From Flavobacteriales bacterium 34_180_T64 (lineage in GTDB: Bacteria > Bacteroidota > Bacteroidia > Flavobacteriales > Flavobacteriaceae), in NCBI GenBank assembly GCA_002162765.1, contig MAAR01000012.1, positions 155,199 through 179,198 on the forward strand: 24,000 nucleotides of DNA. Reading direction: 5' to 3'. The notes below the pieces were generated by a model, which had not been told where the DNA came from, did no database searches, and saw nothing but the letters and a program-made list of their open reading frames with translations. This document shows, one piece after another, positions 3,244 through 24,000 of this stretch (position 1 is the stretch's first letter; the number at the start of each line of letters is the position of its first letter). A program made the position numbers and the translations under genes.

Positions 3244-6069
3244 ATGAAAACAATACTTAAAATTTCAATGCTGTTTTGTTGTGTCTTTACTTTTGGACAA
3301 ACTACAGTAAAAGGTAAAGTATCCGACAATAACGGGCAACCTTTACCAGGTGCAAATATTATTGTCGTTGGTACTACAACAGGAACTATTTCAGATTTTG
3401 ATGGTAACTATACGTTAACTGTAGATCAAGACCCTCCATTTTCAATTACTGTAAGTAGTGTCGGTTTTGACTCAGTAACTCAAGAAGTTACTATGAATAC
3501 CCAAACACTAGATTTTGTTTTAGTGGAAGGAACCTCATTAGATGAGGTAGTAATCTCAGCGTCTCGTACTCCTGAACGTATTTTTGAATCTCCAGTAACT
3601 GTTGAACGATTTGGACTTAAGGAAATAAAAAATACGGCTTCTGCTGATTTTTATGATGGACTTGAAAACTTGAAAGGGGTAGATATTAATGTAAATAGTT
3701 TAACATTTAAATCTATTAATACTAGAGGTTTCGCAACGTTTGCTAATACACGTTTCATGCAGCTAGTTGATGGAATGGATAACTCTGCTCCTGCACTTAA
3801 CTTTCCATTAGGAAATTTATTAGGTATGACAGAAACAGACATTCTAAGTGTGGAGTTATTACCTGGTGCTGCATCTGCCTTATATGGTGCAAATGCATTT
3901 AATGGTATCTTGTTTATGAGAAGTAAAAGTCCATTTGATCATACTGGAGTTAGCGGTTATGTGAAACAAGGATTGACCTCCCAAGAGGCAGCTGGTGATA
4001 ATAATTATACTGATGTAGGTATAAGAATGGCCTATAAATTTAGCGATAAGTTTGCTGCTAAAGTAAATTTCGGATATTTAAAAGGTACCGATTGGGTTGC
4101 TGAAAATACCATGGACAAAAGAAACAATGGTTTTACAAGAGCAAATCTAGATTACGATGGTGTTAACGTTTATGGAGATGAAGTATTTGCAAATATTAAA
4201 GGGGTAGCTGAAATTCTAGAGGAAACTTTAGATGCTACTGGTAATCCAATATTGCCAGCTGGAGCAAATGCCTTAGTGCCTTCTGTTGACGTTAGTAGAA
4301 CAGGTTATAATGAGGCTGACTTAACAGACTATAACGCCGAGAGTATTAAAGCAGATTGGGGCTTATATTTCCGTCCTTGGGCTGATGATTTTGAAATCCA
4401 GTATGTTGGGAAAATTGGTTCTGGATCTACTATCTATCAAGGCGCGAATAGATACGCAATCGACGATTTCTTTCTGCAACAACATAAAATAGAAATCAAA
4501 AACGATAATTTCTTCCTAAGAGGATATGTTACTGAAGATAAAGCTGGTGATTCATACGATATGGTATTTACAGGTGTGAATATTAATAGAGCGTGGAAAG
4601 ACGACAATACTTGGTTTGGCGAATATGTAGGAAACTATGTTGCAGCAACATTAGGTGGTGCTACAAATGATCAGGCACACGCTGTAGGTAGAGCAGTTGC
4701 GGAAACCGGCCGTTTTGAACCAGGATCTCCTGAGTTTGAAGCTGCATTTAATAGAAGTATTAATGACCCTAGTTTATTAACAGGGTCAAAATTTCAAGAT
4801 AATTCGAAAATTTATCATGGTGATGGAAATTATAATTTAAGTCATCTTATTGATTTTGCTGAAATCCAAGTTGGTGGATCGTATAGACAATACCAATTGA
4901 ACTCTTTTGGAACAATCTATACAGATAATGATGGACCAATTAAATATTCAGAAGTTGGTTTTTATACGCAAATTCAAAAATCGCTGGAATTATCAGAAAG
5001 TGTGGATTTAAAATTGACTGGTTCTGTACGTTATGATAAATCTGAATTATTTGATGGTTTCTTTTCACCGAGACTATCTGCTGGATTTACTGTAAATAAT
5101 AATCATAACATTAGAGCTTCTTTTCAAACAGGTTTTAGAAATCCAACGACTCAAGATTTATATATAGGACTTGATGTAGGTAGAGCCATCTTAGTTGGTG
5201 GTGCTCCAGATAATCCAGCACGTGATATTAGAAATTATGGTTTAAGTGCAACCGGACAAGCGTTGTTAGGTAGTCCTTCAATTAATTTCTCTGGTGAAGG
5301 TGCTTATAATAATTCATTCACGGCGAGTTCTGTTGCTGATGGTTTTGCTAATACTGGTAATCCAGCAGATTTGGAAATTGCAAACTCGAGTTTAGCTCAA
5401 CCAGAACAAGTAACTTCAATTGAAGTTGGATATCGTGGAAAATTAAATAAAGTTATCGTAGATGCGTCTGCTTATTACAACTCTTATAAAGATTTCTTAT
5501 CTAACGAAACCGTAATTGCTCCTTTTTATGGAGATGTACAACTGGAGCAAAATGTTCCTGGTACTTCAACGCCTCTTGCTATTGCAGCAATTGCGAATAA
5601 TGATTACCAAGTGTATCAAACTTATACCAATACAGATGCCGATGTGAGCTCCTATGGGGCTGCAATAGGAATATCTGCAAAAGTTATGAATGGTTTTGAT
5701 CTAGGATTTAATTATACCTATTCAAAATTAGATTTTGATCAGGAGGCTAATCCAGATTTTCAAACCAACTTTAATACGCCAGAACATAAAGTGAAAGCTT
5801 CGTTTGGAAAAACAGAATTATTTAAAAATTTTGGTTTCAATGTGGCCTGGAGATGGTCTGACACGTATGAGTGGGAAGCTTCATTCGCTAATGGAGATGT
5901 ACCAGCTTACCACGTTATGGATGCACAAATTAATCTTAGAGTTCCTAGTTTAAAATCGCAGTTTAAAGTTGGTGCTACCAACTTATTACAAGATGAATAT
6001 TTTACAGCTGTAGGAACAGGACTAATAGGTTCGATGTATTATGTATCATGGACTATCAATAACTTATAA
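3244..6069 (+). CDS. TonB-dependent outer-membrane receptor with N-terminal carboxypeptidase-regulatory-like domain
   Basis: 941 aa. Signal peptide MKTILKISMLFCCVFTFGQ. CarboxypepD_reg-like segment (TVKGKVSDNNGQPLPGANIIVVGTTTGTISDFDGNYTL). Plug-like segment (LDEVVISASRTPERIFESPVTVERF). Long Gly/Tyr/Asn-rich barrel with an aromatic-rich C-terminus (MYYVSWTINNL). Preceded by a 214-nt AT-rich intergenic region. Confidence 0.85.
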   Translation: MKTILKISMLFCCVFTFGQTTVKGKVSDNNGQPLPGANIIVVGTTTGTISDFDGNYTLTVDQDPPFSITVSSVGFDSVTQEVTMNTQTLDFVLVEGTSLDEVVISASRTPERIFESPVTVERFGLKEIKNTASADFYDGLENLKGVDINVNSLTFKSINTRGFATFANTRFMQLVDGMDNSAPALNFPLGNLLGMTETDILSVELLPGAASALYGANAFNGILFMRSKSPFDHTGVSGYVKQGLTSQEAAGDNNYTDVGIRMAYKFSDKFAAKVNFGYLKGTDWVAENTMDKRNNGFTRANLDYDGVNVYGDEVFANIKGVAEILEETLDATGNPILPAGANALVPSVDVSRTGYNEADLTDYNAESIKADWGLYFRPWADDFEIQYVGKIGSGSTIYQGANRYAIDDFFLQQHKIEIKNDNFFLRGYVTEDKAGDSYDMVFTGVNINRAWKDDNTWFGEYVGNYVAATLGGATNDQAHAVGRAVAETGRFEPGSPEFEAAFNRSINDPSLLTGSKFQDNSKIYHGDGNYNLSHLIDFAEIQVGGSYRQYQLNSFGTIYTDNDGPIKYSEVGFYTQIQKSLELSESVDLKLTGSVRYDKSELFDGFFSPRLSAGFTVNNNHNIRASFQTGFRNPTTQDLYIGLDVGRAILVGGAPDNPARDIRNYGLSATGQALLGSPSINFSGEGAYNNSFTASSVADGFANTGNPADLEIANSSLAQPEQVTSIEVGYRGKLNKVIVDASAYYNSYKDFLSNETVIAPFYGDVQLEQNVPGTSTPLAIAAIANNDYQVYQTYTNTDADVSSYGAAIGISAKVMNGFDLGFNYTYSKLDFDQEANPDFQTNFNTPEHKVKASFGKTELFKNFGFNVAWRWSDTYEWEASFANGDVPAYHVMDAQINLRVPSLKSQFKVGATNLLQDEYFTAVGTGLIGSMYYVSWTINNL

Positions 6070-6080
6070 AAATTACAACA

Positions 6081-7706
6081 ATGAAAACTTTAAAATATAT
6101 ATTCTTTTCAGCAGTTCTTTTAGGTTTTACAGCCTGTGATAGCGATGATGATTCATCAACAGACGTAGAACCATTACCCGAACTTTCTGCAGGAACAGCT
6201 AATTTTTCAACTTATGTTTCCTTAGGAAACTCTTTAACTGCTGGATTTACAGACAGTGCTTTATTTATTGCTGGTCAAGAAAATTCATTTCCAAATATTT
6301 TATCCAGTAAATTTGCGATGCTCGGAGGGGGTGCTTTTACGCAACCTCTAATGAATGATAATTTAGGAGGTATCGCCTTAGGTGGAACTCAACTTCCTGG
6401 AGCTTCTTTAGGTCCGAGATTAATTTTTAATGGGGCTGTTCCTGCTCCAATTACAAGCATTATTGGCCCAGCAGTTTCGTCTACAGATTTATTAGTAAAT
6501 AATCCAACTGGTCCTTTCAATAATATGGGTGTTCCTGGTGCAGCAAGTTTTCATTTAATAGCATCTGGATATGGTAATATTGGTAATTTACCTGCGGCAG
6601 CAAACCCTTATTTTGTGAGAATGACTGGGGCAACACCAGATGCTACTATTATGGAAATGGCAATGGCCCAATCGCCTTCATTTGTGACTTTATGGGTAGG
6701 TGCCAATGATGTATTAGGTTATGCACTTGGCGGTGCTTCTTCTGGTGCACCAACACCGCAACCAACGTTTGATTTCGCAATGTCGCAAATTATGACGAGC
6801 CTTGGAGGCGTTCAAGGCGTTATGGCAAACATTCCTAATATTACAGATGTTCCGTATTTTACAACAATTAATCATGACGGATTAGAGCCATCAAACCCAG
6901 ATTTCGGGCCTCAAATACCAACACTTAATGGGATTTTTGGTCAACTAAATCTAGTCTATGCCTTTTTAGAAAGTCAAGGAATTCCAAATGCCACTGAACG
7001 TGCAATTGTATTCTCTGAAACTGAAAATAGTTCTTTTGTGATTAAAGATGAAAGTTTAATAGATTTGTCTGCTCAAATTGCTGGTGTATTAAATGCGAGT
7101 CCAACATTCCCTGCCTTTGTAGAATCTTTTGGATTACCAGCTGCAGCGGCTCCATTAGTTGCAAATTTATTGGGTGTGACTTATGGACAATCTAGACAGG
7201 CTAATGAAAATGATTTAATAGTGCTGGCAAGTTCTCCAATACTTGGGACAGTTAATGAGGCTTCTGTAGCAGCGTTAATGGGTCAAGGGTTACCACTCGC
7301 ATTAGCAGGACAATTCTCTGTAGAAGGTATTACGTTACCATTGGAAGATAAATGGATTATAATCCCTAGTGAAAATGATGAAATCAATATGGCTATTAAT
7401 GGTTATAATGGAACCATTCAAGCTTCTGCTTCTGCTGCAGGATTTGGTTTTGTTGATGCCAATTCAGTTTATCAACAAATGGCTTCAATTGGATATACTG
7501 ATGGCGATTTTACACTAACAGGGAATCTCGTTATGGGAGGTGCTGTCTCATTAGATGGTTTTCATCCAACATCTAGAGGTTATGCTTTGGTTGCAAATGA
7601 ATTTATGAAAGCTATTGATGCCGCATATGGTTCAAATTTTGAAGCTTCCGGTAACTTAGTTGACATAGGAAACTATCCAACAAATTACTCGCCTGCACTT
7701 CAATAA
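6081..7706 (+). CDS. SGNH/GDSL-family hydrolase lipoprotein
   Basis: 541 aa. Lipoprotein-type signal (LLGFTAC, then a D/S-rich linker). SGNH block I-like SLGNSLTAGF and block V-like DGFHPTSRGY near the C-terminus. Starts 11 nt after the TonB receptor stop. Followed by a strong terminator. Confidence 0.7.
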   Translation: MKTLKYIFFSAVLLGFTACDSDDDSSTDVEPLPELSAGTANFSTYVSLGNSLTAGFTDSALFIAGQENSFPNILSSKFAMLGGGAFTQPLMNDNLGGIALGGTQLPGASLGPRLIFNGAVPAPITSIIGPAVSSTDLLVNNPTGPFNNMGVPGAASFHLIASGYGNIGNLPAAANPYFVRMTGATPDATIMEMAMAQSPSFVTLWVGANDVLGYALGGASSGAPTPQPTFDFAMSQIMTSLGGVQGVMANIPNITDVPYFTTINHDGLEPSNPDFGPQIPTLNGIFGQLNLVYAFLESQGIPNATERAIVFSETENSSFVIKDESLIDLSAQIAGVLNASPTFPAFVESFGLPAAAAPLVANLLGVTYGQSRQANENDLIVLASSPILGTVNEASVAALMGQGLPLALAGQFSVEGITLPLEDKWIIIPSENDEINMAINGYNGTIQASASAAGFGFVDANSVYQQMASIGYTDGDFTLTGNLVMGGAVSLDGFHPTSRGYALVANEFMKAIDAAYGSNFEASGNLVDIGNYPTNYSPALQ

Positions 7707-9737: not shown

Positions 9738-10293
9738 ATGCCCAATTCCAAATGATCAGCTCCCAATTACGATCATTAGACGTATAGGTTTTTAATACTT
9801 CAAATCCAATGGCTTTGTGAGCATCTATTGATCTTATATTTTCCCCATCAACCTCAGTTATTATCATATTAAACGTTGCGTTTAATTCCGCTCTCATAAA
9901 CTCATACAAACCTCTAAATATGCCTAACTTTCTATAGGATTTATCAATACATATTTGTCCCATTGTTAGGTAACTTAGCTTCTCTTTATTCTGAATTCGT
10001 AATTCTTTATCTATTTCATTAAACATTGATACCAATACTGGAATCTCTTTTTGGAATTCTTGAAGCATACACAATGCATATCCCACAACTTTTGAATTAT
10101 GCTTCGCAATGACATGCGCACATTTGTCATTCATCGATTTTAATAATTCAAACGAATGGTGAACAGTTACAAAACCTTCCTTATCTTTTTCAGAATTCGA
10201 AAGTCCTTGAGGCAAATTTATACGTTGAAGTTCTAGAATTTGATGCAATTCTTCGTTGGTAAAAGCTCTTTTATAGCTGATATTGGTATTCAT
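9736..10293 (-). CDS. GNAT-family N-acetyltransferase
   Basis: 185 aa. Acetyl-CoA binding motif A-like segment (QICIDKSYRKLGIFRGLY, i.e. the Q/RxxGxG/A region) and an overall GNAT-like beta-alpha pattern. Confidence 0.65.
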   Translation of the reverse strand: MNTNISYKRAFTNEELHQILELQRINLPQGLSNSEKDKEGFVTVHHSFELLKSMNDKCAHVIAKHNSKVVGYALCMLQEFQKEIPVLVSMFNEIDKELRIQNKEKLSYLTMGQICIDKSYRKLGIFRGLYEFMRAELNATFNMIITEVDGENIRSIDAHKAIGFEVLKTYTSNDRNWELIIWNWA

Positions 10294-10346
10294 ATTTTAA
10301 ATTTACAATATTTAATATATCTCTATTAAATAGATCGTTCATTATT

Positions 10347-10354
10347 TATATTTG
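10347..10354 (+). promoter_or_regulatory. Candidate -7 box (TAnnTTTG) at the head of the first bio sub-operon
   Basis: TATATTTG lies only 5 nt before the ATG at 10359. This would imply a leaderless or near-leaderless transcript, or a chance match. Confidence 0.25.
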
Positions 10355-10358
10355 TGAT

Positions 10359-10904
10359 ATGTATGACAATATAATTGTATCTGAAAGTGACAGACCAATT
10401 TGGCAAATTCCAGTTGCGGCATTTCTATTTACTCTTGCTTTAGCTTTAATTCTGAGAGCTTTTTATCTTAATGATTGGTCTTATCATGATGTAATCCTTT
10501 TAACAGAAGATTTCAAGCATTCTTCTTTGTTAGCAGCAGTTGGTGTTGGGTTTTGTTCTCAAAAACGAATTTATATTGATTTAATCAATTCCAAAATTAA
10601 ATCAGCATTTGAAATAGGCCCTCTTAAGTTTGGAAAATGGCAAACGATGAAGAATCTAGAATACGTATCCGTTTTTCATAGACCTAAAGAAAATGGTAGT
10701 TATGCTTTCGAAGTAAATCTTTGGTATGAAAAGGTTAAACGCATTGAACTTTATGAAAGAGACAACTATTTCGAGGCCTTTAAAATTGGGTTTAATGTAT
10801 CAGAAGGATTAAATATAGACTTATTAGACGCAACTGTTGCACACCAAAGTACGTGGGTAGATAAAGACAAGTGGAAACGAAAAATGAATGATGAAAATTC
10901 CTAA
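10359..10904 (+). CDS. Hypothetical 2-TM membrane protein, bio-locus paralog A
   Basis: 181 aa. Two hydrophobic segments (IPVAAFLFTLALALILRAF; SSLLAAVGVGF), then a soluble domain. Clear paralog of 16413..16892, sharing IDL..K, GKW, EY[VI]SVF, NL[WF]Y, K.IE.Y, AF, SE.LNID[LI]LDAT. Its stop overlaps the bioF start by 14-17 nt. Confidence 0.7.
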   Translation: MYDNIIVSESDRPIWQIPVAAFLFTLALALILRAFYLNDWSYHDVILLTEDFKHSSLLAAVGVGFCSQKRIYIDLINSKIKSAFEIGPLKFGKWQTMKNLEYVSVFHRPKENGSYAFEVNLWYEKVKRIELYERDNYFEAFKIGFNVSEGLNIDLLDATVAHQSTWVDKDKWKRKMNDENS

Positions 10905-12033
10905 AAAGCTACAAACCAAAATTGACCAACGTGTTAAAGAAGATGCACTACGCCAACTTGGTGAACACAGTAATATCGTGGATTTTGCTTCTAACGACTA
11001 TTTAGGATTTTCAAAATCAAGAACCATTTTTAATAAAACTCATGATTATCTTGTTGGACATGATTGTTTGCAGAATGGATCAACCGGTTCTCGCTTATTA
11101 TCCGGAAACCATCCTTTATATACAACTTTAGAAAGCATCCTTTGTGAATTCCATAATAGTGATTCAGCTTTGGTTTTTAATTCTGGTTATGATGCCAATT
11201 TAGGATTCTTTTCTTCGGTACCTCAACGCAGTGATCTCATTTTATATGACGAGTATATTCACGCTTCCATAAGAGATGGGATTCAACTTTCAAATGCAAA
11301 AGCTTATAAGTTTAAGCACAATGATATTGAGCATTTAATCTTACGTCATTCTGAACTTGTTTCAGAATCTCATCAACATATTTATATCGTGACAGAATCC
11401 GTGTTTTCTATGGATGGTGATTCACCTGATTTAAAAGGGTTCGTCGAATTCTGCAATCAAAATGACTGTTTTTTGATTACTGATGAAGCACATTCCGTTG
11501 GAGTTCACGGTAAAAACGGCATCGGTTTACTGCAAGATTTAAATCTAGAAAAAGATGTATTTGCTAGAATTATAACCTTTGGAAAAGCTTTGGGCTCGCA
11601 TGGTGCTGCAATTCTATGTCATGAAGATTTGAAGTCCTACTTAGTCAATTTTGCCCGCTCGTTTATTTATACCACAGCCTTAACTCCTCATACATTAGCA
11701 ACAATTTCGACTGCCTATAATGAAATGTTGATGACCTCTGCATTAGAAAAACTGCAGCAAAACATCAAGTTTTTCAATACTGAAATTAAACGACTCAACC
11801 TAAAACAGTTCTTTATTCAAAGTACTTCGTCTATACAATCATGTGTGTTGTCAGGAAATGAAACTGTGAAAACTATTGCTGAAAAATTACAGGTTCTAAA
11901 TTACAATGTGAAGCCTATTTTATCCCCTACAGTTCCCAAAGGAGAAGAACGCTTACGATTTTGTTTACATTCTTATAATTCTGAGAAAGAAATGACTGAA
12001 GTTTTAACCATGTTAGCTACTTTTGTGTTATAA
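10888..12033 (+). CDS. bioF: 8-amino-7-oxononanoate synthase
   Basis: 381 aa class-II aminotransferase-like. GSTGSRLLSGN, IVTESVFSMDGD, ITDEAHSVG and the PLP-lysine context TFGKALGSHGAAI. Start could be the second ATG at 10891. Carries an in-frame copy of the 31-nt hairpin element at 11344-11374. Confidence 0.9.
   Translation: MMKIPKKLQTKIDQRVKEDALRQLGEHSNIVDFASNDYLGFSKSRTIFNKTHDYLVGHDCLQNGSTGSRLLSGNHPLYTTLESILCEFHNSDSALVFNSGYDANLGFFSSVPQRSDLILYDEYIHASIRDGIQLSNAKAYKFKHNDIEHLILRHSELVSESHQHIYIVTESVFSMDGDSPDLKGFVEFCNQNDCFLITDEAHSVGVHGKNGIGLLQDLNLEKDVFARIITFGKALGSHGAAILCHEDLKSYLVNFARSFIYTTALTPHTLATISTAYNEMLMTSALEKLQQNIKFFNTEIKRLNLKQFFIQSTSSIQSCVLSGNETVKTIAEKLQVLNYNVKPILSPTVPKGEERLRFCLHSYNSEKEMTEVLTMLATFVL
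11344..11374 (+). repeat. 31-nt hairpin repeat, copy 1 (inside bioF, in frame)
   Basis: CGTCATTCTGAACTTGTTTCAGAATCTCATC. Stem ATTCTGAA/TTCAGAAT (11348-11355 / 11361-11368), loop CTTGT. Translated in the bioF frame as RHSELVSESH. Confidence 0.85.
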
Positions 12034-12042
12034 TCTTTTTAA

Positions 12043-12420
12043 ATGAAAGACAGCCATACCGTTTTAGCCGTATTTGAATATTCAACTGAAGCTCAAATCA
12101 CTAAAACTAAATTAGAATCTGAAGATATAAGAGCAATTTTGGCTGACGAAAAAACAATCGATACAGATCCATTATTAAGTCAAGCAATTGGTGGTGTCAA
12201 ATTATTGGTTCATAACGATGATTTCGATAAAGCTGTAAAAATCTATAACGATATAAGAGCCTATAGAAAAGATGTAAATGGAAATGAGGTACATTGTGTA
12301 AATTGTAATTCTACTCGGGTTTTAATGGCGCCGCCTAACCGTAAAAAATTCTTATATATGTTATTCCCTTTTTTCGAAAAAAGTAAAAATATGTGTAACG
12401 ATTGTAAAACTATATTCTAA
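12043..12420 (+). CDS. Hypothetical protein: DUF2007-like N-terminal domain plus C-terminal CxxC...CxxC zinc ribbon
   Basis: 125 aa. The N-terminal ~70 aa resemble the small 'putative signal transducing' DUF2007 fold pattern (my recollection). The C-terminus has CVNC (x30) CNDC. Starts 9 nt after the bioF stop, and its TAA abuts the bioD ATG. Confidence 0.55.
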   Translation: MKDSHTVLAVFEYSTEAQITKTKLESEDIRAILADEKTIDTDPLLSQAIGGVKLLVHNDDFDKAVKIYNDIRAYRKDVNGNEVHCVNCNSTRVLMAPPNRKKFLYMLFPFFEKSKNMCNDCKTIF

Positions 12421-13029
12421 ATGAAGCGCATATTTGTAACTGGTATTTCTACAGATGTTGGTAAAACTATTGCTTGTGCAATACTTACAGAAGCCCTTAA
12501 AGCGGATTACTGGAAGCCTATACAAGCTGGAGAATTAGAATCTTGTGACACAAAAAGAGTTCAGCAATTAGTGGCAAACAAAATTTCAAAATTTCATCAA
12601 AATTCATATGCATTACATACTCCTATGAGTCCTCATGCGGCGGCAGATATTGATGGTATTTCGATTGATTTAAAATCTATTAAACCGCCAAAAACTAAAA
12701 ACCACTTGATTATTGAAGGTGCAGGCGGATTATTGGTACCAATAAATGACACTCAAACAGTTTTGGATATAATGGAACCTAATTCAAAAGTGATTGTCGT
12801 TTCAAGACACTATTTAGGTAGTATAAACCATACCCTTTTAACGGTTAACCTTCTTAAAGAAAAAGGTTTTGACGTGTCAATTATTTTTAGTGGTGATGAA
12901 CACGAAACAACAGAAGATATAATTACAAAAATGACCAACGTGCCAATTATTGGCCGTATAAATGAAGAGCCTTACTTCGATAAAAATGTTGTTAAGGAAT
13001 ATGCAGAATTATTCAAAGAAATGTTATAA
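12421..13029 (+). CDS. bioD: Dethiobiotin synthetase
   Basis: 202 aa. P-loop VTGISTDVGKT, EGAGGLLVP motif, size and context. Confidence 0.9.
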   Translation: MKRIFVTGISTDVGKTIACAILTEALKADYWKPIQAGELESCDTKRVQQLVANKISKFHQNSYALHTPMSPHAAADIDGISIDLKSIKPPKTKNHLIIEGAGGLLVPINDTQTVLDIMEPNSKVIVVSRHYLGSINHTLLTVNLLKEKGFDVSIIFSGDEHETTEDIITKMTNVPIIGRINEEPYFDKNVVKEYAELFKEML

Positions 13030-13030
13030 T

Positions 13031-13061
13031 CGTCACACTGAACTTGTTTCAGTGTCGCATC
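13031..13061 (+). repeat. 31-nt hairpin repeat, copy 2
   Basis: CGTCACACTGAACTTGTTTCAGTGTCGCATC. Stem ACACTGAA/TTCAGTGT (13035-13042 / 13048-13055), loop CTTGT. Begins 1 nt after the bioD stop. Confidence 0.85.
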
Positions 13062-13068
13062 ATAATTT

Positions 13069-13347
13069 ATGAAATCTAGTTATGTTTACATATTAACCAA
13101 TCCATATAGAACTACATTTTATATTGGAGTAACAGACAATTTACATAAAAGATTAGAAGAACATTACGATGAAACTGCTTCAAAATTTACTAAAAAATAC
13201 AACATTAAAGATTTGATTTATTTTGAAAATTTTACTGAAATAGAACAGGCGATTGCAAGAGAAAAACAATTGAAAAATTGGCATAAAGCATGGAAATTGA
13301 ATTTAATTAAAACATTAAATCCAACTTTAAAAACTTTAGATTATTAA
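13069..13347 (+). CDS. GIY-YIG nuclease-family small protein (COG2827/UPF0213-like)
   Basis: 92 aa. YVYILTN...FYIGVTDNLHKRLEEH...FTKKY...LIYFE...AIAREKQLKNW matches the GIY / YIG / R / E signature order of the small stand-alone GIY-YIG proteins. Confidence 0.9.
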   Translation: MKSSYVYILTNPYRTTFYIGVTDNLHKRLEEHYDETASKFTKKYNIKDLIYFENFTEIEQAIAREKQLKNWHKAWKLNLIKTLNPTLKTLDY

Positions 13348-13362
13348 ATTTACAATACAAAT

Positions 13363-13393
13363 AATGAGATGCTGAAACAAGTTCAGCATGACG
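13363..13393 (-). repeat. 31-nt hairpin repeat, copy 3 (inverted)
   Basis: Reverse complement reads CGTCATGCTGAACTTGTTTCAGCATCTCATT. Stem ATGCTGAA/TTCAGCAT (13369-13376 / 13382-13389). It supplies the ATG used by the ORF track as the bioA start. Confidence 0.85.
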
Positions 13394-13404
13394 AACGACC
13401 AACA

Positions 13405-14670
13405 ATGACATTACAAGAGAGAGATAAAAAACACCTCTGGCATCCCTTGACGCAACATAAATTGCATCCAGATCATATTGCAATCACAAAAGCTAAAGGA
13501 TGCATGTTGACTGATGAAAACGGGAGATCCTATATTGATGCTATCGCTTCTTGGTACACTTCAATGTATGGGCATTGCAATTCGTATATCACTTCTCAGG
13601 TTACTGAACAAATGCAATCTCTGGATCAAATTGTTTTCAGTGGATTTACACATGAGCCCGCCATTCAATTGAGTGAAGCGCTTATTAAAATACTCCCTGA
13701 AAATCAAAATAAAATTTTCTTTAGTGATAATGGTTCAACTAGTGTTGAGATTGGAATAAAAATGGCATTGCAATTTCATTTCAACAATCATGAAAAGAGA
13801 AATACTTTAATTGCTTTTGAAGATGGGTTTCATGGGGACACATTCGGAGCCATGAGTGTTTCCGGATTGTCCGTTTATAATGGCCCTTTTGAAGACTATT
13901 TTTTAGATGTTAAACGGATTCCTACACCTAATGGAAAGAATCATGATTTTATTTTAGATGCGTTAAAATCCATAACTGAATCTCACAAAGTGGCAGGTTT
14001 CATTTATGAGCCTTTAGTTCAAGGTGCGGCGGCAATGAAAATGCATAATACCGAAGGATTAGATTTAATATTGAAATTTTGTAAAGACCATAAAATCATT
14101 ACTGTTGCTGATGAAGTTATGACAGGATTTGGTAAAACTGGCCGTAATTTTGCATCGGATTATATGTCGAATAAACCTGATATTATATGCTTGAGTAAGT
14201 CGTTAACAGCTGGATTATTACCAATGGCAATTACGTCCTGTTCTCAAGAAATTTACGAAGCTTTTTATAGTGATGATATAAGTAAAGGATTGTTTCATGG
14301 GCACACCTACTCTGCTAATCCATTGGCTTGTAGAGCAGCAATAGCAGGCATTGAATTATTACAATCTGAAGAAATTCAAGAAAACATCAAACGTATTATA
14401 GCATCTCATCGCAGGTTCGATGAACGCATAAAAAACCATTCGAAAGTAAAATCAACACGTCAAACAGGAATTATTTTCGCATTAGATTTAAACATTGAAA
14501 TGGAGCGCTATGGAAATTTACGAGACAAACTCTTCAATTTCTTTATGAACAATGGCGTGTTTTTAAGGCCACTTGGAAATACAATCTATATTCTAGCGCC
14601 TTATGTGATTAGTGAAACTGAATTGAAAAAAGTGTATGCGGTTATTGAAGAGGCTTTAAATACCTTCTAA
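13405..14670 (+). CDS. bioA: Adenosylmethionine-8-amino-7-oxononanoate aminotransferase
   Basis: Class-III aminotransferase. LWHPLTQH near the N-terminus, DEVMTGFGKTG, and the PLP-lysine context ICLSKSLTAG. I place the start at ATG 13405 (MTLQERDKKHLWHP). The track start at 13369 adds MLKQVQHDERPT, which is simply the translated hairpin repeat. Confidence 0.9.
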   Translation: MTLQERDKKHLWHPLTQHKLHPDHIAITKAKGCMLTDENGRSYIDAIASWYTSMYGHCNSYITSQVTEQMQSLDQIVFSGFTHEPAIQLSEALIKILPENQNKIFFSDNGSTSVEIGIKMALQFHFNNHEKRNTLIAFEDGFHGDTFGAMSVSGLSVYNGPFEDYFLDVKRIPTPNGKNHDFILDALKSITESHKVAGFIYEPLVQGAAAMKMHNTEGLDLILKFCKDHKIITVADEVMTGFGKTGRNFASDYMSNKPDIICLSKSLTAGLLPMAITSCSQEIYEAFYSDDISKGLFHGHTYSANPLACRAAIAGIELLQSEEIQENIKRIIASHRRFDERIKNHSKVKSTRQTGIIFALDLNIEMERYGNLRDKLFNFFMNNGVFLRPLGNTIYILAPYVISETELKKVYAVIEEALNTF

Positions 14671-15090
14671 ATTCTTATCTATTAAGTTTATTTCCTCTTG
14701 AGTCTCTTTTATTCTTACATATAATTCTTCATAGACCCATTCGCCATCAATTTTCTCTCCAACTACATAAATAGTCCCTTGACCATCAGATCCTTTAATA
14801 GGAATTCTAATATCTACATGCCCAGAATCTCCATTTTTTAAAGAAATATTTCCCTGCATGATCCCATTGGTCTCAATTGGGTCTCCTAAATGATAGGCAA
14901 CAATATCACTGAGTTTAGCTTCTTGAAGAGCATATTCATATGGTCCCGAATTTTTAATGGCATTTGTAACACCGAAAATTATTGCGCCAATTCCGAATAC
15001 AAATAATAAAATAACGGTAAGGCAACCACCTACAGGTAATAACCACAACCAATTTCTACCAAACCAACTTTTTTGTTTTACCTCTTCCAT
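14656..15090 (-). CDS. Small N-terminally anchored membrane protein (Coa1-like family, by recollection)
   Basis: 144 aa. One TM (WLWLLPVGGCLTVILLFVFGIGAIIFGV) followed by a ~100-aa soluble domain. Convergent with bioA, with 3' ends overlapping by 15 nt. The family label is from memory of similar Flavobacteriia annotations. Confidence 0.55.
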   Translation of the reverse strand: MEEVKQKSWFGRNWLWLLPVGGCLTVILLFVFGIGAIIFGVTNAIKNSGPYEYALQEAKLSDIVAYHLGDPIETNGIMQGNISLKNGDSGHVDIRIPIKGSDGQGTIYVVGEKIDGEWVYEELYVRIKETQEEINLIDKNLEGI

Positions 15091-15201
15091 AGATTCAATT
15101 ATATCTAAAGATAGGTATCTCTCATATAGTACTTGTTACAGAAATTGAAAATTATTTCCACAACAAGTTTCAAATTTCTGTGAAATGAATTCAGGATGGC
15201 T

Positions 15202-15209
15202 TATTTTTG
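15202..15209 (+). promoter_or_regulatory. Candidate -7 box (TAnnTTTG) for the second bio sub-operon
   Basis: TATTTTTG. Its terminal TTG is the very codon the ORF track uses as the KAS start (15207), so either the box or that start is wrong. Confidence 0.3.
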
Positions 15210-16376
15210 TCAAAAGAAAAAACCTTGCTTAAACCCATATCGATTACCGCCATAGCTGCTATTTCTCCCTTGGGAAATTCTTTAGATGAGGCTTGGGAAA
15301 ATTATAAAAACAACGCCCATTTTATTTCTGAAAAACAATTTTCAACTCAGCGTGTATTAATTTCGGAATTGTCTAATGAAGTACAGGCTGAAATAGAAAT
15401 TTTGAGACAATCTGAATCAAAATATAAAGCACTTGATAATTCAGTACTTTATGCCATATACACCTCTAGAAAAGCCGTAAAACAGGCAAATTGGAATTCT
15501 GAAGATCAATTTGGAATTAATATTGGATCTTCAAGAGGCGCAACACAGCTTTTCGAAACATATCATGAAGCATATCTCAAAAATAAAACCTCACACCCAT
15601 TAAGTTCCCCGACTACAACACTAGGTAATATTTCATCTTGGGTGGCCCATGATTTAAATTCTAAAGGACCTGAAATCAGTCACTCAATTACATGTTCCAC
15701 TGCCTTACATGCTATGCTTAATGGTATTGCCTGGATTAATGCTGGCATGTCTGACAAGTTTTTAGTTGGAGGAAGTGAAGCACCATTGACTGGCTTCACA
15801 ATTGCACAAATGCAGGCCTTAAAAATTTATGCAAAACACACTACAGATTATCCATGTCGAGCGTTAGATTTTTCAAAAAATGAAAATGAGATGGTTTTAG
15901 GTGAAGCCGCTGCTTCAGTTTGCCTAGAACAGGGTGAAACAAAAAATGCTTTGGCTGTAATTAAAAGCTTTGGATATGCTACCGAATTATTGGAACATAA
16001 CGCATCTTTATCAACTAATGCTATCTGTTTTCAGCGTTCCATGACAATGGCTTTAGGAGACATGGATCCCGCTTCAATTGATGTTATTGTTACACACACT
16101 CCAGGAACAATAAAAGGAGATATTTCTGAACATAATGCTATTAAAACTGTGTTCAAAAATAAAATTCCATCACTTACAAATAACAAATGGAAAATTGGTC
16201 ATAGTCTTGGAGCATCCGGTTTGACGAGTATTGAAATGGCCATTCTCATGTTGAAACATCAAGAATTTATAGGGGTTCCTTTTTGCAATGAACCGAAACC
16301 AAAAAAACTTCAAAACATTCTAATAAATGCAGTTGGTTTTGGTGGAAATGCGGTGAGTATTCTAATATCTAAATAA
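15207..16376 (+). CDS. Beta-ketoacyl synthase, KAS I/II (FabB/FabF)-like, embedded in the biotin locus
   Basis: 389 aa. Cys-His-His set in FabF-like contexts: GPEISHSITCSTALHA (Cys), VTHTPGTIKGD (His), NNKWKIGHSLGASG (Lys/His). C-terminal NAVGFGGNAVSILISK. No in-frame ATG near the 5' end; candidate starts are TTG 15207 or TTG 15225. Confidence 0.8.
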   Translation: MSKEKTLLKPISITAIAAISPLGNSLDEAWENYKNNAHFISEKQFSTQRVLISELSNEVQAEIEILRQSESKYKALDNSVLYAIYTSRKAVKQANWNSEDQFGINIGSSRGATQLFETYHEAYLKNKTSHPLSSPTTTLGNISSWVAHDLNSKGPEISHSITCSTALHAMLNGIAWINAGMSDKFLVGGSEAPLTGFTIAQMQALKIYAKHTTDYPCRALDFSKNENEMVLGEAAASVCLEQGETKNALAVIKSFGYATELLEHNASLSTNAICFQRSMTMALGDMDPASIDVIVTHTPGTIKGDISEHNAIKTVFKNKIPSLTNNKWKIGHSLGASGLTSIEMAILMLKHQEFIGVPFCNEPKPKKLQNILINAVGFGGNAVSILISK

Positions 16377-19544: not shown

Positions 19545-20018
19545 TTATTTGATTAACGTATTTACTTTTTCATAGACCAGATGGCTTTCCCATCCCCTGT
19601 AAAGCAAATAATCCACTAGTTTTTTCTTTCTTTTGAACACATTGGATTCCTTAATTTGATGAAATCTCTTTAGGGCCAATTCGTCCAGAGAATTTATATA
19701 TTCGTCTTCAGGGATTTCCTTCATTGCTAACTTAATATTATACTCGGAGATGTCTCTATATTTTAATTCTCTCGTAATTCTAACGCGTCCCCATTTCTTA
19801 ATTTTAAATTTACCTTGTGTGAAAATTCTTGCGAAACGTGACTCGTTTAAATAATCCTGTCTAATCAATGAGACTACAATTAAATCGATAGCTTCAGGTA
19901 TCATTCGCATAGATTTAAGTTTTTGATGAACTTCTTTATGACAACGCTCCTGATAAGCACAATAAAATTCTAATTTTTTTTGTGCTTCATCGAAAGTATA
20001 TGTTTTTTGTGGAATCAA
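19545..20018 (-). CDS. recX: Regulatory protein RecX
   Basis: 157 aa. N-terminal A..K...YCAYQERCHKEV..KL pattern and helical-repeat organisation typical of Bacteroidota RecX. Start is a TTG (20016-20018) that is also the end of a TAnnTTTG match, so the start is uncertain. Confidence 0.7.
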   Translation of the reverse strand: MIPQKTYTFDEAQKKLEFYCAYQERCHKEVHQKLKSMRMIPEAIDLIVVSLIRQDYLNESRFARIFTQGKFKIKKWGRVRITRELKYRDISEYNIKLAMKEIPEDEYINSLDELALKRFHQIKESNVFKRKKKLVDYLLYRGWESHLVYEKVNTLIK

Positions 20019-20093
20019 AAGTAATTAGTAACAATTTGTTAATAAATTAGATGCTGCAACACCCTGATTTTTAATGAATTTAGACTATATTCG

Positions 20094-20101
20094 TATGTTT
20101 G
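20094..20101 (+). promoter_or_regulatory. Candidate -7 box (TAnnTTTG) for the giant surface-protein gene
   Basis: TATGTTTG, 28 nt upstream of the ATG at 20129. Confidence 0.4.
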
Positions 20102-20128
20102 CTTAATAGCAAAAATAAGTTTTTCCCG

Positions 20129-23100
20129 ATGATAAAAAAATATGCCCTCGTATTAATAGTTGTTTTATGTTTTGGTGTGTCTGGTTTTGGACAAACAACC
20201 ATATTTAATATTCCAGGTGGAGGTGCATATCCCAATGCTGGATGGAGTGATACCAATAATATAATTAGTGAACCAATAGACAAATCTAGTTATTTCATGA
20301 TTCAACCTGGAAATCCTGGCGATTTAATTGTAACATCTTCTTACGATTTAAGTGCTCACACTTCGGCAACATTAGACATTGATATTGGATCTTTTGGTTC
20401 AGGAACTCATAATAGTTTATTAGTAGAAGTTTCATTAAATGGTGGTTCTAATTACACTCAAAGTTATACTACTACTGCGACTACATCTTCAACAGAAACC
20501 CTTAGAACAGTGAATATAACTTCCGTTTCATCGAATATGGTTATTCGTTTTACAGTTAATAGCACAACTGGTAGAGGTATTAGAATGCAAAACATACACT
20601 TACAAGGTATTGGTTCAGCTTCTACAAATACTGAAGTGAATTTTTCATCTGCAACGTATTCTACTTCTGAAATTGGTGTTTCTATAAATCTATGTGTGGA
20701 TATAACGAATCCGAGCGGAAGTGTAGCAACTACTGCAAATGTGGTTTTAACATCTTCAAATATTCCGCATTTAACATCTCCAATTAGTCTACCCATAACA
20801 TTTCCTGCAGGAGTTTCTACTCAACAATGTGTGAGTATAGCAATTACAGATAATAGTACGTGTTCAGATGATACTAGTTATACTTTTAATCTACAAAGTA
20901 TTGGTGGTGGTACTTCTGCAATAGCAGGTTCTATAAGTTCTACCTCTTTAACAGTTAACGATAATGATGGCTCGGTTGGCGTATTTAGAACTTTATCTTT
21001 TGAAGGTGCCGATGATTGGACTTATACTGGTGGTGGAGCGACTAATTCTACATTTAATAAATATTTTGGCACTACATCATATAGACTAGGCAATTCTAAC
21101 AATTTAACCACAGCAAATGAAGACATATCAACATTTTCAAATGTAACTTTGATCGTGGCTTTTGCCTCTGTGGGTGCTGACTCAAATGAAGATTTATATT
21201 TGGACATTTCATATGATAATGGTGCTACGTGGAATGGAACAGGATCCGTTAAGCTTGTAGATGGTTACAGTAATGCAAATATTAATATGGGTAATACGAA
21301 TGGCTCTAACCCTACAACAGTAGGCACAAACCCTTGGGTAGTTAGCATTCCCGCTATTGAAACCCAAATAAGAGTAAGGCTTAGGGCTGTTAATTTAGAT
21401 GGTGGTGAATATTATTTTGTAGACGATATTATTTTAAGTGGCGATTCCTGTTTAACATCTCCTTTAATTACTTTATCTTCTAATTCACTAACTGGATTAG
21501 ATTATGTTGTAGGAGCTGGACCTTCGCCTGTGATACCTTCTAATAGTTTTGATATTACAGGTGCCAATTTAACAGCAGATATAATTCTAAACGGGCTTAC
21601 TGATTTTGAAATCTCAGCTAATATCGGTGGCCCGTATAGCACTTCATATACTATTCCGTTAGCAAGCGCAAATGGTACGAATACAATTTTTGTGCGATTA
21701 AGTAGCGCATTGGCGGTTAACACGTATAGCGAAACCGTAACGGTGAGTAGTACAAGTGCAACAAACAAAACAATAAGTTTAGATGGAGAAGTCATTCCAA
21801 CTTTAGCAGATGTGGTTATTACTGAAATTATGTATAATACTTTTGGAACTGACGATGATTGGATTGAAATCTGTAATGTTTCTGGATCTACCCAGTATCT
21901 AAATAATTATATAATTGATGTTGGAGGATCAAGTGTTTTTACTTTCCCTTCAAGTGTTACGCTATTAGACGGAGATTGTATTATTATTGATCTAGGAGAT
22001 GGTGGTGGTAGTGAATATAATGTTGATTGTCCGATTCTTCCAATTGATATCGACTACTCTAGTGGTTTAGGATCAGGAACTCTAAATAATACAACTGATA
22101 CCATCACATTGTATGCATCAAATGGATCTACTGTTTCAGATGTTGTTACTTATTCCAGTGCTGATGGTGGAAATACTACCTCTCTTCATGTCGTAAATAC
22201 GGCATTAGATAATTCAACTACAAGTACGAACTGGCAGGATGTCCCTGACGGAGGATCCGCAGGTACAAATTCTCTAACATCACCTTGCTCGCCAATTGAA
22301 CCCGATATCAATGTTGAAGGAAACATTGGAACCTTCCCAGATATAGCAGGAGATGGAAGTAATATTCCTGTAGGATTTAATAATACACTATTTGCTGCTA
22401 CTCCAATTGGTGGAGGGTCTCAAATGAAGTCATATAGAATTCAAAATACAGGTATTGTTGTATTAAACATAGCATCGATAACTTTGTCAGGAACAAATCC
22501 AGGTGACTTTAGTGTTTCTAGTGTGCCTGCAACTGTTAACCCAAGTGGAGTTGAAACATTTAATATTACCTTCACACCTACTGCAACTGGGCCTAGAACG
22601 GCTATTGTAACTATTGATTCTGATGATCCAGATGCTTGGGAAGATCCTTATGTATTTAATATAAAAGGTGAAGGGATCTGTGCGAGTTCAACCATTTCTG
22701 TTTCCAGTTTTGCGCCTTTAGAAGGTCCTGTGGGAACAGAAGTTACTATTACAGGTAATGGTTTTTCAGCTACTTCTACAGTTACTATAAACGGCACTAC
22801 AGCCACAGTGATTTCTGGATCGGCAACCGAACTTGTTGTAGAAATTCCTAGTATAACGAATTCAGGACCATTTGTAATTACAGAAGGTTCATGCTACACA
22901 ATATCTTCTTCAAATTACATATTGACAACAGATAATAGTGGTTGTGGTCTCACCGATTTAATTATGTCTGAAATATATGATCAAAATGGTGGAAGTTTAG
23001 GATACATAGAAGTTTATAATGGTACAGGAAATACTATAGACTTATCTATCTATTATATTAGACGCTATGGAGATGCAGGAGATTTTGTAGATGATAATTA

Positions 23101-24000
23101 TACAGATTACTATTTTACACCTTCTCAAGACTTAATTCTTGATGGAGAAGTATTATATGGTAAAATAAGTACAGATGCAGATACTGCTACTCCGGACTTT
23201 GATTATGCAAATGTCAGTGGATTTGCAGGTATCAATGGTGAAGATATTTTCCATTTATACAATGCCACAACACTGATTGATGTTTATATCGTTCCAAATA
23301 CAAATATTGGCTATACGGCAACACGAAATACAAATACTGCTGGACCAAATACAACGAGCACCCCATCAGATTGGACACACTCAACTACGGAAAGCACCAC
23401 AAACTTAGGTACGTTTAATTACGTATCTGCAATTGATAAACCAAATGTTGGTAATCCCGCAGATGTTTCTGGATGCGCTACAATGGCTCAGTTTGATGCC
23501 ACATCAACTGCTGGTGGAGGTGGTGCCTTATCTTACCAATGGTATTTCAATGAAGGAAATGCCTCAGATACGGATTGGGAAATTGTAACTCCTGGAGATT
23601 TCCCACTAGTTACTGTTACAGGAATTACGGGTCCTATCTTAACACTTACCGGTTCTTTTTATTCCTATGAAGGTTATCAATTTTATTGTTTGGTAACTGA
23701 AGATGGTGCCTGTGGATTGGCCTCTAATGCCGCTCAAATTAATTCTAATAGTACAACATGGACGAATACTGGTTGGAGTAATGGTGTCCCAACTTTAAAT
23801 TCGTTGGTAATAATAAATTTTGCCTATGATACTTCTGTTGGAACTAATAACGAAACCAGTTTCCAAGCCTGTAGTTTAACGGTCAATAATGGATTCACAT
23901 TAACTATTTCTAACAACACTTTTGTAGAAGTTGAAAATGACGTTACCGTAGATGGAGCAATTTTAGTGAGAACACAAGGTGCTTTTGTTCAAAATAATGA
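20129..24000 (+). CDS. Very large secreted multidomain surface protein (two lamin-tail domains, choice-of-anchor-D-like, IPT/TIG, Ig-like modules); 3' end beyond the window
   Basis: Not in the supplied track. I translated the frame starting at ATG 20129 by hand and found it open to nt 24000 (>1290 codons). In-frame TAG upstream at 20081-20083. Signal peptide MIKKYALVLIVVLCFGVSGFGQ. LTD-like ADVVITEIMYN...DDDWIEICNVSG (~21800-22280) and LTDLIMSEIYDQNGGSLGYIEVYNGTGNTIDL (~22950-23410). Choice-of-anchor-D-like EPDINVEGN...YRIQNTG...LSGTNPGDFSV...FNITFTPTATGPRTAIVTIDSDD (~22298-22675). IPT/TIG-like ISVSSFAPLEGPVGTEVTITGNGF (~22687-22890). Cys-bounded Ig-like module with YQWY (~23470-23740). The four minus-strand track ORFs in this region are antisense shadows. 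Confidence 0.88.
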   Translation, partial: MIKKYALVLIVVLCFGVSGFGQTTIFNIPGGGAYPNAGWSDTNNIISEPIDKSSYFMIQPGNPGDLIVTSSYDLSAHTSATLDIDIGSFGSGTHNSLLVEVSLNGGSNYTQSYTTTATTSSTETLRTVNITSVSSNMVIRFTVNSTTGRGIRMQNIHLQGIGSASTNTEVNFSSATYSTSEIGVSINLCVDITNPSGSVATTANVVLTSSNIPHLTSPISLPITFPAGVSTQQCVSIAITDNSTCSDDTSYTFNLQSIGGGTSAIAGSISSTSLTVNDNDGSVGVFRTLSFEGADDWTYTGGGATNSTFNKYFGTTSYRLGNSNNLTTANEDISTFSNVTLIVAFASVGADSNEDLYLDISYDNGATWNGTGSVKLVDGYSNANINMGNTNGSNPTTVGTNPWVVSIPAIETQIRVRLRAVNLDGGEYYFVDDIILSGDSCLTSPLITLSSNSLTGLDYVVGAGPSPVIPSNSFDITGANLTADIILNGLTDFEISANIGGPYSTSYTIPLASANGTNTIFVRLSSALAVNTYSETVTVSSTSATNKTISLDGEVIPTLADVVITEIMYNTFGTDDDWIEICNVSGSTQYLNNYIIDVGGSSVFTFPSSVTLLDGDCIIIDLGDGGGSEYNVDCPILPIDIDYSSGLGSGTLNNTTDTITLYASNGSTVSDVVTYSSADGGNTTSLHVVNTALDNSTTSTNWQDVPDGGSAGTNSLTSPCSPIEPDINVEGNIGTFPDIAGDGSNIPVGFNNTLFAATPIGGGSQMKSYRIQNTGIVVLNIASITLSGTNPGDFSVSSVPATVNPSGVETFNITFTPTATGPRTAIVTIDSDDPDAWEDPYVFNIKGEGICASSTISVSSFAPLEGPVGTEVTITGNGFSATSTVTINGTTATVISGSATELVVEIPSITNSGPFVITEGSCYTISSSNYILTTDNSGCGLTDLIMSEIYDQNGGSLGYIEVYNGTGNTIDLSIYYIRRYGDAGDFVDDNYTDYYFTPSQDLILDGEVLYGKISTDADTATPDFDYANVSGFAGINGEDIFHLYNATTLIDVYIVPNTNIGYTATRNTNTAGPNTTSTPSDWTHSTTESTTNLGTFNYVSAIDKPNVGNPADVSGCATMAQFDATSTAGGGGALSYQWYFNEGNASDTDWEIVTPGDFPLVTVTGITGPILTLTGSFYSYEGYQFYCLVTEDGACGLASNAAQINSNSTTWTNTGWSNGVPTLNSLVIINFAYDTSVGTNNETSFQACSLTVNNGFTLTISNNTFVEVENDVTVDGAILVRTQGAFVQNN

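Follow-up and report, generated by a model that had tools for sequence, protein, structure and literature searches.

A 24,000-nucleotide (nt) stretch of the uncultured Flavobacteriales bacterium 34_180_T64 (contig MAAR01000012.1, forward-strand positions 155,199 to 179,198; hereafter the window) ends inside a giant gene that starts at window position 20129. With a probability that we put at roughly 80%, this gene encodes a highly acidic, adhesin-like cell-surface protein of about 189 kDa that belongs to the RemA/RemZ family and is exported by the Sec pathway and a type IX secretion system (T9SS). Residues 1186–1803 of its 1,805-amino-acid (aa) product align by phmmer to residues 548–1112 of Flavobacterium johnsoniae RemZ (8gl8_D, E 6.8e-50) and residues 1205–1803 to residues 893–1434 of RemA (8gl6_D, E 1.1e-45), the homology spanning a region of around 500 aa as well as the C-terminal domain (CTD) that follows it. 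Motifs shared with RemZ are YTYWSSP, GNPYxSxI, GQGFFV, FxNSMR and WxNLT...GAT.

An intact gene of 1,805 codons

A preliminary description of this DNA, made from the window alone, had claimed a single plus-strand frame open from ATG 20129 to the window end. Indeed, translation gives 1,290 codons without a stop, for which the base composition of the region, with a stop expected every ~13 codons, allows a chance of ~1.6e-44, and the remaining five frames contain 46–137 stops each over the same span. A log-likelihood for codon usage, with nine further genes from the window as its training set, gives the long frame 0.325 bits per codon, whereas the best antisense frame reaches 0.062 and the rest are negative. 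The guanine-plus-cytosine (GC) content of the long frame by codon position (0.41/0.49/0.19) is a typical coding signature for a sequence of 33–38% GC. The preliminary description had also remarked that the open reading frame (ORF) track showed only four short minus-strand ORFs here; exactly four of at least 60 aa are present, all outscored by the long frame when compared span by span, and they are non-coding shadows of the long gene. The long frame itself is missing from the track because ORFs that run off the source go unlisted, a listing rule rather than biology.

20129–24000, plus strand: coding sequence, codons 1–1290 of 1805, continuing 1,546 nt past the window (translation, two assemblies)
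20080–20283, 20464–20796, 21022–21207 and 21502–21795, minus strand: four antisense ORFs of 61–110 aa, all within 20080–21795

An exact 80-nt search of a species-representative genome collection gave no match, so that the source genome is evidently not among the representatives, and the contig was reached through a protein search, which returned a 100%-identical entry of 1,805 aa (P0001), deposited at NCBI as 'hypothetical protein A9Q87_10035 [Flavobacteriales bacterium 34_180_T64]'. Contig Ga0239576_1000047 of JGI metagenome 3300030037 (334,911 bp; locus L001) overlaps the window by 13,872 nt with 0 mismatches. Extension of the contig, for which the preliminary description had asked, located the stop at 1,546 nt beyond the window end: the gene occupies L001 10001–15418, equivalent to window position 20129 through 25546 including the stop, and is listed there as one ORF (9971–15418, 1,815 codons from an upstream TTG). 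Because a second assembly (Logan SRR3580189, L002) encodes an identical 1,805-aa product, a frameshift or in-frame stop is excluded. Translation probably starts at ATG 20129 rather than at the upstream TTG 20099: NCBI and JGI both call the gene from this ATG, and alignments with several homologues begin at residue 1. This start also gives a classical signal peptide.

The long frame is thus a real, complete and intact gene. The alternative that the frame is open by chance or belongs to a decaying pseudogene, and that the true genes are those on the minus strand, has nothing in its favour beyond the absence from the ORF list. This reading is already refuted by the open frame itself (chance ~1e-44), by 1,805 codons intact in two assemblies, by coding statistics that prefer the long frame to the antisense ORFs, and by hundreds of homologues, among them two Winogradskyella proteins (P0009 and P0011) that align end to end; we give it practically no credence. 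The observations that the preliminary description had named as able to overturn its account (an in-frame stop or frameshift, a lack of domain matches, better statistics for the antisense ORFs) all came out negative.

The RemA/RemZ-type module and its sorting domain

The region of RemA/RemZ homology starts within the window and consists of a core of about 520 aa (hereafter the Rem core) followed by a Type A CTD of about 78 aa (aa ~1732–1805), which lies outside it. The core accounts for the greater part of the third of the protein that the window does not show.

23741–24000, plus strand: start of the RemA/RemZ-type module, aa ~1205–1290 in the window, assigned by homology; the core extends to about aa 1725

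Across residues 1186–1803, no Pfam or NCBIfam model matched except over the last ~60 aa, a PDB search found no credible match outside the CTD, and no description of the pre-CTD region was found in the literature searched. The Rem core is always fused directly to a CTD, with neither a Pfam or NCBIfam model nor a solved or matching structure. The structure model of the module is confident, with a predicted local distance difference test (pLDDT) of 84.8 and a predicted template modelling (pTM) score of 0.79, and the CTD region has a pLDDT of 84–94.

The C terminus had been out of sight of the preliminary description, and both sequence and structure models place a predicted T9SS sorting domain at the end of the protein. 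By sequence models this CTD is borderline: the Type A model TIGR04183 scores 23.0 bits with the whole protein (cutoff 23) and 25.1 bits with the module alone, the match covering aa 1743–1804, PF18962 reaches only 18.8 bits (cutoff 27), and the Type C (ChiA type) model NF033708 scores 34.4–35.1 bits, below its cutoff of 40 yet the best of the CTD models. The predicted fold is that of solved, translocon-bound Type A CTDs; in Foldseek comparisons, the CTD modelled with AlphaFold2 matched those of RemA (template modelling (TM) score 0.79, root-mean-square deviation (rmsd) 2.2 Å), RemZ (TM 0.80) and NucA (TM 0.72). In the RemZ complex, K1110, a conserved lysine near the C terminus, forms hydrogen bonds with PorV (PMC10994853). 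K1800–R1801 of the protein described here align to RemZ K1109–K1110, and K1800 and K1804 hardly vary across the family. The CTD is basic (isoelectric point (pI) 9.5) and is carried on an acidic passenger (pI 4.05).

The scores of the Type C model allow for a different fate, in which the protein is a soluble secreted T9SS cargo with a ChiA-like Type C signal, which the cell would release into the medium for binding or scavenging instead of displaying it. NF033708 does outscore TIGR04183 (34–35 against 23–25 bits), 52 of 58 family members match the Type C model at E <= 1e-3, and F. johnsoniae RemA has also been found in spent medium (PMC12618676). However, the NF033708 score stays below cutoff, and 49 of the same 58 members match the Type A model, so that the two CTD models overlap in this family. 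The closest solved relatives, RemA and RemZ, are Type A and RemA forms surface foci (PMC10994853, PMC12618676), and the modelled CTD fold likewise matches Type A CTDs. We consider release as a soluble Type C cargo unlikely, if a serious possibility, and favour a Type A protein of the cell surface.

Two observations on the module stand apart from these comparisons. Beyond the window, aa 1364–1375 of the Rem core (L001 14090–14125) form a nearly invariant acidic loop, GQDDIDDxGxDW, which resembles the DxDxDG calcium-binding motif and for which the model pLDDT is low (55–64). In addition, BFVD gave one full-length match to the Rem-module fold, A0A8D9C8P8 (E 7e-28), which has 587 aa and is entered as 'putative hemin binding protein [uncultured marine phage]'. 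We take it to be a further family member, not informative on function; it comes either from a flavobacterial gene within a viral-fraction metagenome or from a copy carried by a phage.

Passenger modules and the proposed route to the surface

Upstream of the module, the preliminary description had seen a signal peptide and a chain of β-sandwich modules, and had taken the product for a cell-surface protein or T9SS cargo of Bacteroidota, a picture borne out by domain models and by the CTD.

20129–20191, plus strand: signal peptide, aa 1–21, MIKKYALVLIVVLCFGVSGFG then Q (from sequence; predicted type I cleavage, leaving an N-terminal Gln)
20246–20614, plus strand: module 1, jelly-roll-like β-sandwich, Reelin-subrepeat-B-like, aa ~40–162
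20621–20968, plus strand: module 2, Calx-β fold, aa 165–280 (PF03160 and Foldseek)
20969–21454, plus strand: module 3, galactose-binding-domain-like jelly-roll, aa 281–442 (weak PF21471 match; pLDDT 77–91)
21455–21799, plus strand: module 4, ~112-aa repeat-type module, aa 443–557 (no Pfam match; pLDDT below 50)
21806–22153, plus strand: lamin tail domain 1 (LTD1), aa 560–675 (PF00932, 52.5 bits, cutoff 34.3)
22352–22633, plus strand: choice-of-anchor D / HYDIN-type Ig domain, aa 742–835 (NF012200, 57.2 bits, cutoff 45)
22700–22915, plus strand: IPT/TIG domain, aa 858–929 (PF01833, match over aa 857–929, 35.2–42.3 bits, cutoff 20.9)
22955–23287, plus strand: lamin tail domain 2 (LTD2), aa 943–1053 (PF00932, 29.7 bits alone, E 9e-7, profile positions 7–105 of 109)
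23426–23713, plus strand: Ig-like module with conserved cysteines C1116, C1187 and C1195, aa ~1100–1195

The N terminus is signal-peptide-like in its layout (MIKK, a hydrophobic helix, GFG, then Q), with G21 and Q22 nearly invariant among homologues and a helix at residues 2–19 in the structure model. Three of the domain types named in the preliminary description are recognized above curated cutoffs: the two LTDs (PF00932 scores 71.4 bits with the whole protein, LTD2 being the second stretch of that match), the choice-of-anchor D domain (for which the HYDIN-type Ig model PF22544 also scores 26.7 bits against a cutoff of 25.5) and the IPT/TIG domain. The Cys-bounded Ig-like module likewise stands, with C1116 and C1195 nearly invariant, a β-sandwich in the model and a weak PKD_4 match (E 0.011).

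The N-terminal modules were read with mixed success. A Calx-β-like module holds by fold and by comparison with collinear orthologues, but not by its own sequence score: PF03160 gives a sub-threshold 18.5 bits (cutoff 27, E 0.002, profile positions 6–119 of 119), whereas the AlphaFold model of module 2 matches NCX1 CBD1 (3gin_A, TM 0.84, rmsd 2.2 Å) and the integrin β4 Calx-β domain (3fso_B, TM 0.78) in Foldseek, and orthologues P0009 and P0011 score 47–48 bits, above threshold. For the two claimed jelly-rolls the evidence is weaker. Module 1 matches the Reelin-subrepeat-B model PF21471 below threshold (E 7e-5 to 5e-3), is modelled at pLDDT 70–90 and resembles Reelin R56 (R5-6) in fold; for module 3, P0009 and P0011 have the galactose-binding-like PF23759 (GBD_T9SS_assoc) directly after Calx-β, at the same relative position, which we infer from domain order to be its equivalent. 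The BACON/Ig-like label proposed for aa 443–557 was dropped, as no Pfam model matched there at E <= 1 and the pLDDT is below 50; the same repeat-type module recurs in tandem in homologues such as P0056.

The structure model of aa 1–1195 has a pTM of 0.32 with single domains well folded, as expected for domains strung on a flexible chain. No catalytic domain was detected anywhere in the protein with Pfam and NCBIfam models. The mature protein, of about 189 kDa, has a pI of 4.05, as does the passenger (aa 22–1185; window 20129–23700), in which Lys and Arg together make up only 2.0% of residues, so that it should be nearly invisible to tryptic proteomics.

By homology to RemA and RemZ, as known from structures and experiments (PMC10994853, PMC12618676), we infer the following route; that the protein is in fact secreted, stays on the surface, binds a ligand or takes part in gliding belongs to this inference. 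The Sec signal peptide would bring the protein to the periplasm, with cleavage before Gln22. The C-terminal sorting domain of ~80 aa would then dock in the SprA pore against the PorV loops, as those of RemZ and RemA do, leading to export across the outer membrane, and PorV would shuttle the protein away from the translocon. As with RemA, it would probably be held on the surface for a time and may later be released. The conserved, predicted all-β Rem core may serve as a rigid base, common to thousands of flavobacterial proteins, that displays a variable elongated passenger, here of eleven β-sandwich modules. These modules (jelly-roll/galactose-binding-like, Calx-β, two LTDs, choice-of-anchor D, TIG and Ig) may bind polysaccharide or other surface ligands in the manner of an adhesin, with polysaccharide as the likeliest guess in view of the galactose-binding-like, Calx-β and TIG modules.

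Several points weigh against this assignment. The CTD scores lie at or below curated cutoffs, with the Type C (ChiA) model ahead of the Type A model, and the residue aligned to the PorV-contacting RemZ K1110 is R1801, an Arg rather than a Lys. The lectin domain that defines RemA is absent, and the Rem core could be enzymatic or have another role. No T9SS core gene lies in the 34 kb of this genome examined, and the presence of a T9SS in the host rests on taxonomy; Flavobacteriales generally have a T9SS.

The two LTDs could also point to a surface protein that binds or handles extracellular DNA. LTDs fused to halotolerant DNases have been proposed as DNA binders (PMC4486849), and deletion of the LTD slows the secreted nuclease ExeM in vitro (PMC6085458). 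Among the diverse passengers of the family, an ExeM-type nuclease occurs in 4 of 58 Rem-module members, and homologues P0071 and P0072 combine an LTD, endonuclease I and a T9SS CTD. The 1,805-aa protein, however, has no nuclease domain detectable with Pfam or NCBIfam models, and its extremely acidic passenger is unfavourable for DNA binding. Moreover, the LTD is dispensable for extracellular DNA degradation by ExeM, and the role of LTDs in bacteria is unresolved (PMC6085458). DNA handling is therefore an improbable function for this protein, and we retain an adhesin-like role.

Family, synteny and comparison with known systems

A word-indexed search with the module returned 885 proteins at E <= 1e-5; over the full module length, the best 120 show 49–59% identity. 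When 1.84 billion cluster representatives (50%-identity clusters) were searched with a profile, 13,071 matched at E <= 1e-3 and 5,051 at E <= 1e-30, the latter number placing the ~520-aa core among the commonest large uncurated domains of marine Flavobacteriaceae. Among the matches listed, the module sits at the extreme C terminus of proteins of 546–2,376 aa. At least 531 loci in species-representative genomes encode it, and the 80 that we inspected, all from Flavobacteriaceae or unclassified Bacteroidota metagenome-assembled genomes, contain 106 module ORFs. A second Rem-module gene follows in tandem, directly downstream of the recX-adjacent one, in L022 (6250–8451), L075 (6113–8752), L030, L049 and L065.

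19545–20018, minus strand: recX, divergent upstream neighbour and synteny anchor of the positional orthologues
20094–20101, plus strand: TATGTTTG, a match to the −7 promoter consensus TAnnTTTG, 28 nt upstream of the ATG (weak evidence)

Clustering of the ORFs that flank the module in the 80 loci found recX in 44, with a median identity of 61% to the recX of the window and lying immediately upstream and divergent in nearly all; further upstream are a cupin gene (26 loci), bioB (15) and DUF6646 (14). This conserved upstream synteny identifies the gene as a positional orthologue across genera, including Flavobacterium and Kordia. In the window, too, DUF6646, cupin and biotin-synthesis genes lie upstream of recX. 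Proteins encoded at the recX position range from 615 to 1,825 aa in roughly two size groups, one 216-aa ORF fragment apart; the long ones are collinear with the 1,805-aa protein only from about residue 409–725 onward, and the short ones share only the module from about residue 1206. Identity is mosaic: P0003 is 58% identical over residues 1–167, 54% over 161–552 and 41% over 677–1805, and P0002 shows the reverse trend along the protein, a pattern indicating that paralogous cargo genes have exchanged modules.

On the 3' side of the gene, after 1 nt, comes a convergent gene for a thioredoxin-like protein (436 aa) and then mfd (L001 15420–20104), an arrangement shared by 0 of the 80 loci (L003–L082); the usual 3' neighbours at orthologous loci are a TonB-dependent receptor gene, recO and porZ (at least 20 loci; 318 bits, cutoff 260). 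The break in synteny coincides exactly with the 3' end of the giant gene. Those neighbours that recur (recX, cupin, bioB, TonB-dependent receptor, recO and porZ) look like general synteny rather than an operon, and we propose no functional partner, as no recurrent neighbour is common to the 3' side of this genome.

The same neighbourhoods bear on whether the protein could be a gliding adhesin of the SprB type, which would carry a Type B CTD and travel on a helical track with a dedicated PorP/SprF shuttle. It is a large, repetitive flavobacterial surface protein, and RemA has been reported as a mobile adhesin (PMC11205867). Against this, no Type B CTD model in NCBIfam matches at E <= 1, the gene has no adjacent porP/sprF-like gene (its downstream neighbour being the convergent thioredoxin-like gene), no such gene recurs among the 80 related loci, and the CTD fold matches Type A. 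An SprB-like identity is rejected on the missing model match and the missing sprF neighbour, and we regard it as highly improbable; the CTD assignment remains Type A.

Other features of the window are incidental to the giant gene. TATGTTTG overlaps the alternative TTG start at 20099, and TAnnTTTG, the −7 promoter consensus of Bacteroidota, shows no enrichment across the window (40 matches, with 36.6 expected), so this match is weak evidence for a promoter. Inside the biotin-synthesis cluster, a 92-aa GIY-YIG (PF01541) ORF (13069–13347, plus strand) is flanked by a bioD-like gene (12421–13029) and a bioA-like aminotransferase gene (13369–14670) and may be a small homing-endonuclease-like insertion. 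A DUF4270 ORF (241–1176, plus strand) matches only profile positions 149–431 of 432, so that the true gene starts upstream of the listed TTG, probably before the start of the window. Positions 3244–7706 (plus strand) encode two proteins in direct succession, first a TonB-dependent receptor of 941 aa that bears a CarboxypepD_reg domain at its N terminus and then a protein of 541 aa that has a GDSL lipase/acylhydrolase domain at its C terminus; the two may form an uptake-plus-esterase pair.

The kind of protein described here is already well known as the giant multi-domain T9SS cargo of Flavobacteriia, and the gene is publicly deposited as a hypothetical protein. The preliminary description was essentially right in its interpretation, and the unlisted 3.9 kb is one intact gene, for which an annotation as T9SS Type A cargo of the RemA/RemZ family is now possible. 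To our knowledge, RemA and RemZ, which share the module, are the only Type A cargoes that stay and move on the cell surface. A speculative proposal, to which we would give well short of even odds, is that the Rem core is more than one further passenger domain, namely a distinct extended sorting and retention device that keeps Type A cargo on the flavobacterial surface. The core might then couple cargo to the gliding machinery, as for the mobile RemA, any N-terminal passenger (adhesin modules, LTDs or nucleases) would be a displayed and exchangeable head, and the recX-adjacent locus, with passengers of ~200 to ~1,200 aa and mosaic identity, would be a hot-spot of head swapping on a constant base. 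With the Rem core defined, thousands of proteins now labelled 'hypothetical' or 'T9SS sorting domain-containing' would be better annotated, and an explanation could emerge for why some Type A cargoes are retained and others released.

Among known systems, SprB is alike in being a giant, repetitive, T9SS-exported surface protein of Flavobacteriaceae, but its CTD is of Type B and it depends on sprF, a shuttle gene next to its own (PMC12618676); both features are absent here. The short recX-adjacent orthologues of ~800 aa, annotated as 'T9SS type A sorting domain-containing protein' (for example, P0093 and P0096 of Aquaticitalea lipolytica; L010–L017), occupy the same position divergent from recX and have a Rem module 49–59% identical over its whole length; they differ in their passenger, which is ~200 aa long and often a single LTD, as against ~1,160 aa here. 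The Winogradskyella 'choice-of-anchor D domain-containing protein' entries P0011 (W. ludwigii, 1,847 aa) and P0009 (1,846 aa) align end to end by BLAST (1–1805 to 1–1846) and share the Calx-β, jelly-roll, choice-of-anchor D/HYDIN Ig, LTD and CTD elements, although identity is low (37–38%), only one LTD is detected in each and their N-terminal ~360–470 aa, up to the first domain detected, have no Pfam match.

RemA (PDB 8gl6 chain D), a Type A, PorV-dependent T9SS substrate (PMC10994853), has the same C-terminal module. It is anchored at the cell and forms surface foci, either static or highly mobile, that can be released at a later time, and spent medium contains it as well (PMC12618676). It owes its adhesin function to a lectin domain that binds rhamnose/galactose (PMC11205867), and the same source, citing Shrivastava 2012, describes it as a mobile adhesin. 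No lectin (Gal_Lectin) model from Pfam or NCBIfam matches the 1,805-aa protein, which has LTD, Calx-β, choice-of-anchor D, TIG and Ig modules instead and whose galactose-binding-like jelly-rolls belong to another family than the RemA lectin; ligand specificity is thus not transferable from RemA. RemZ (Fjoh_0803; PDB 8gl8, 8glm and 8gln, chain D) is homologous over its C-terminal ~565–620 aa, but is 1,114 aa long with a Gly-rich passenger of another type, and its CTD is only ~29% identical. Like RemA, it is a Type A substrate bound to SprA/PorV, and in the SprA–PorV translocon in which it was trapped only the CTD was resolved (PMC10994853). The N-terminal part of RemZ has few trypsin sites (PMC10994853), a feature paralleled by the 2% Lys and Arg of the passenger described here.

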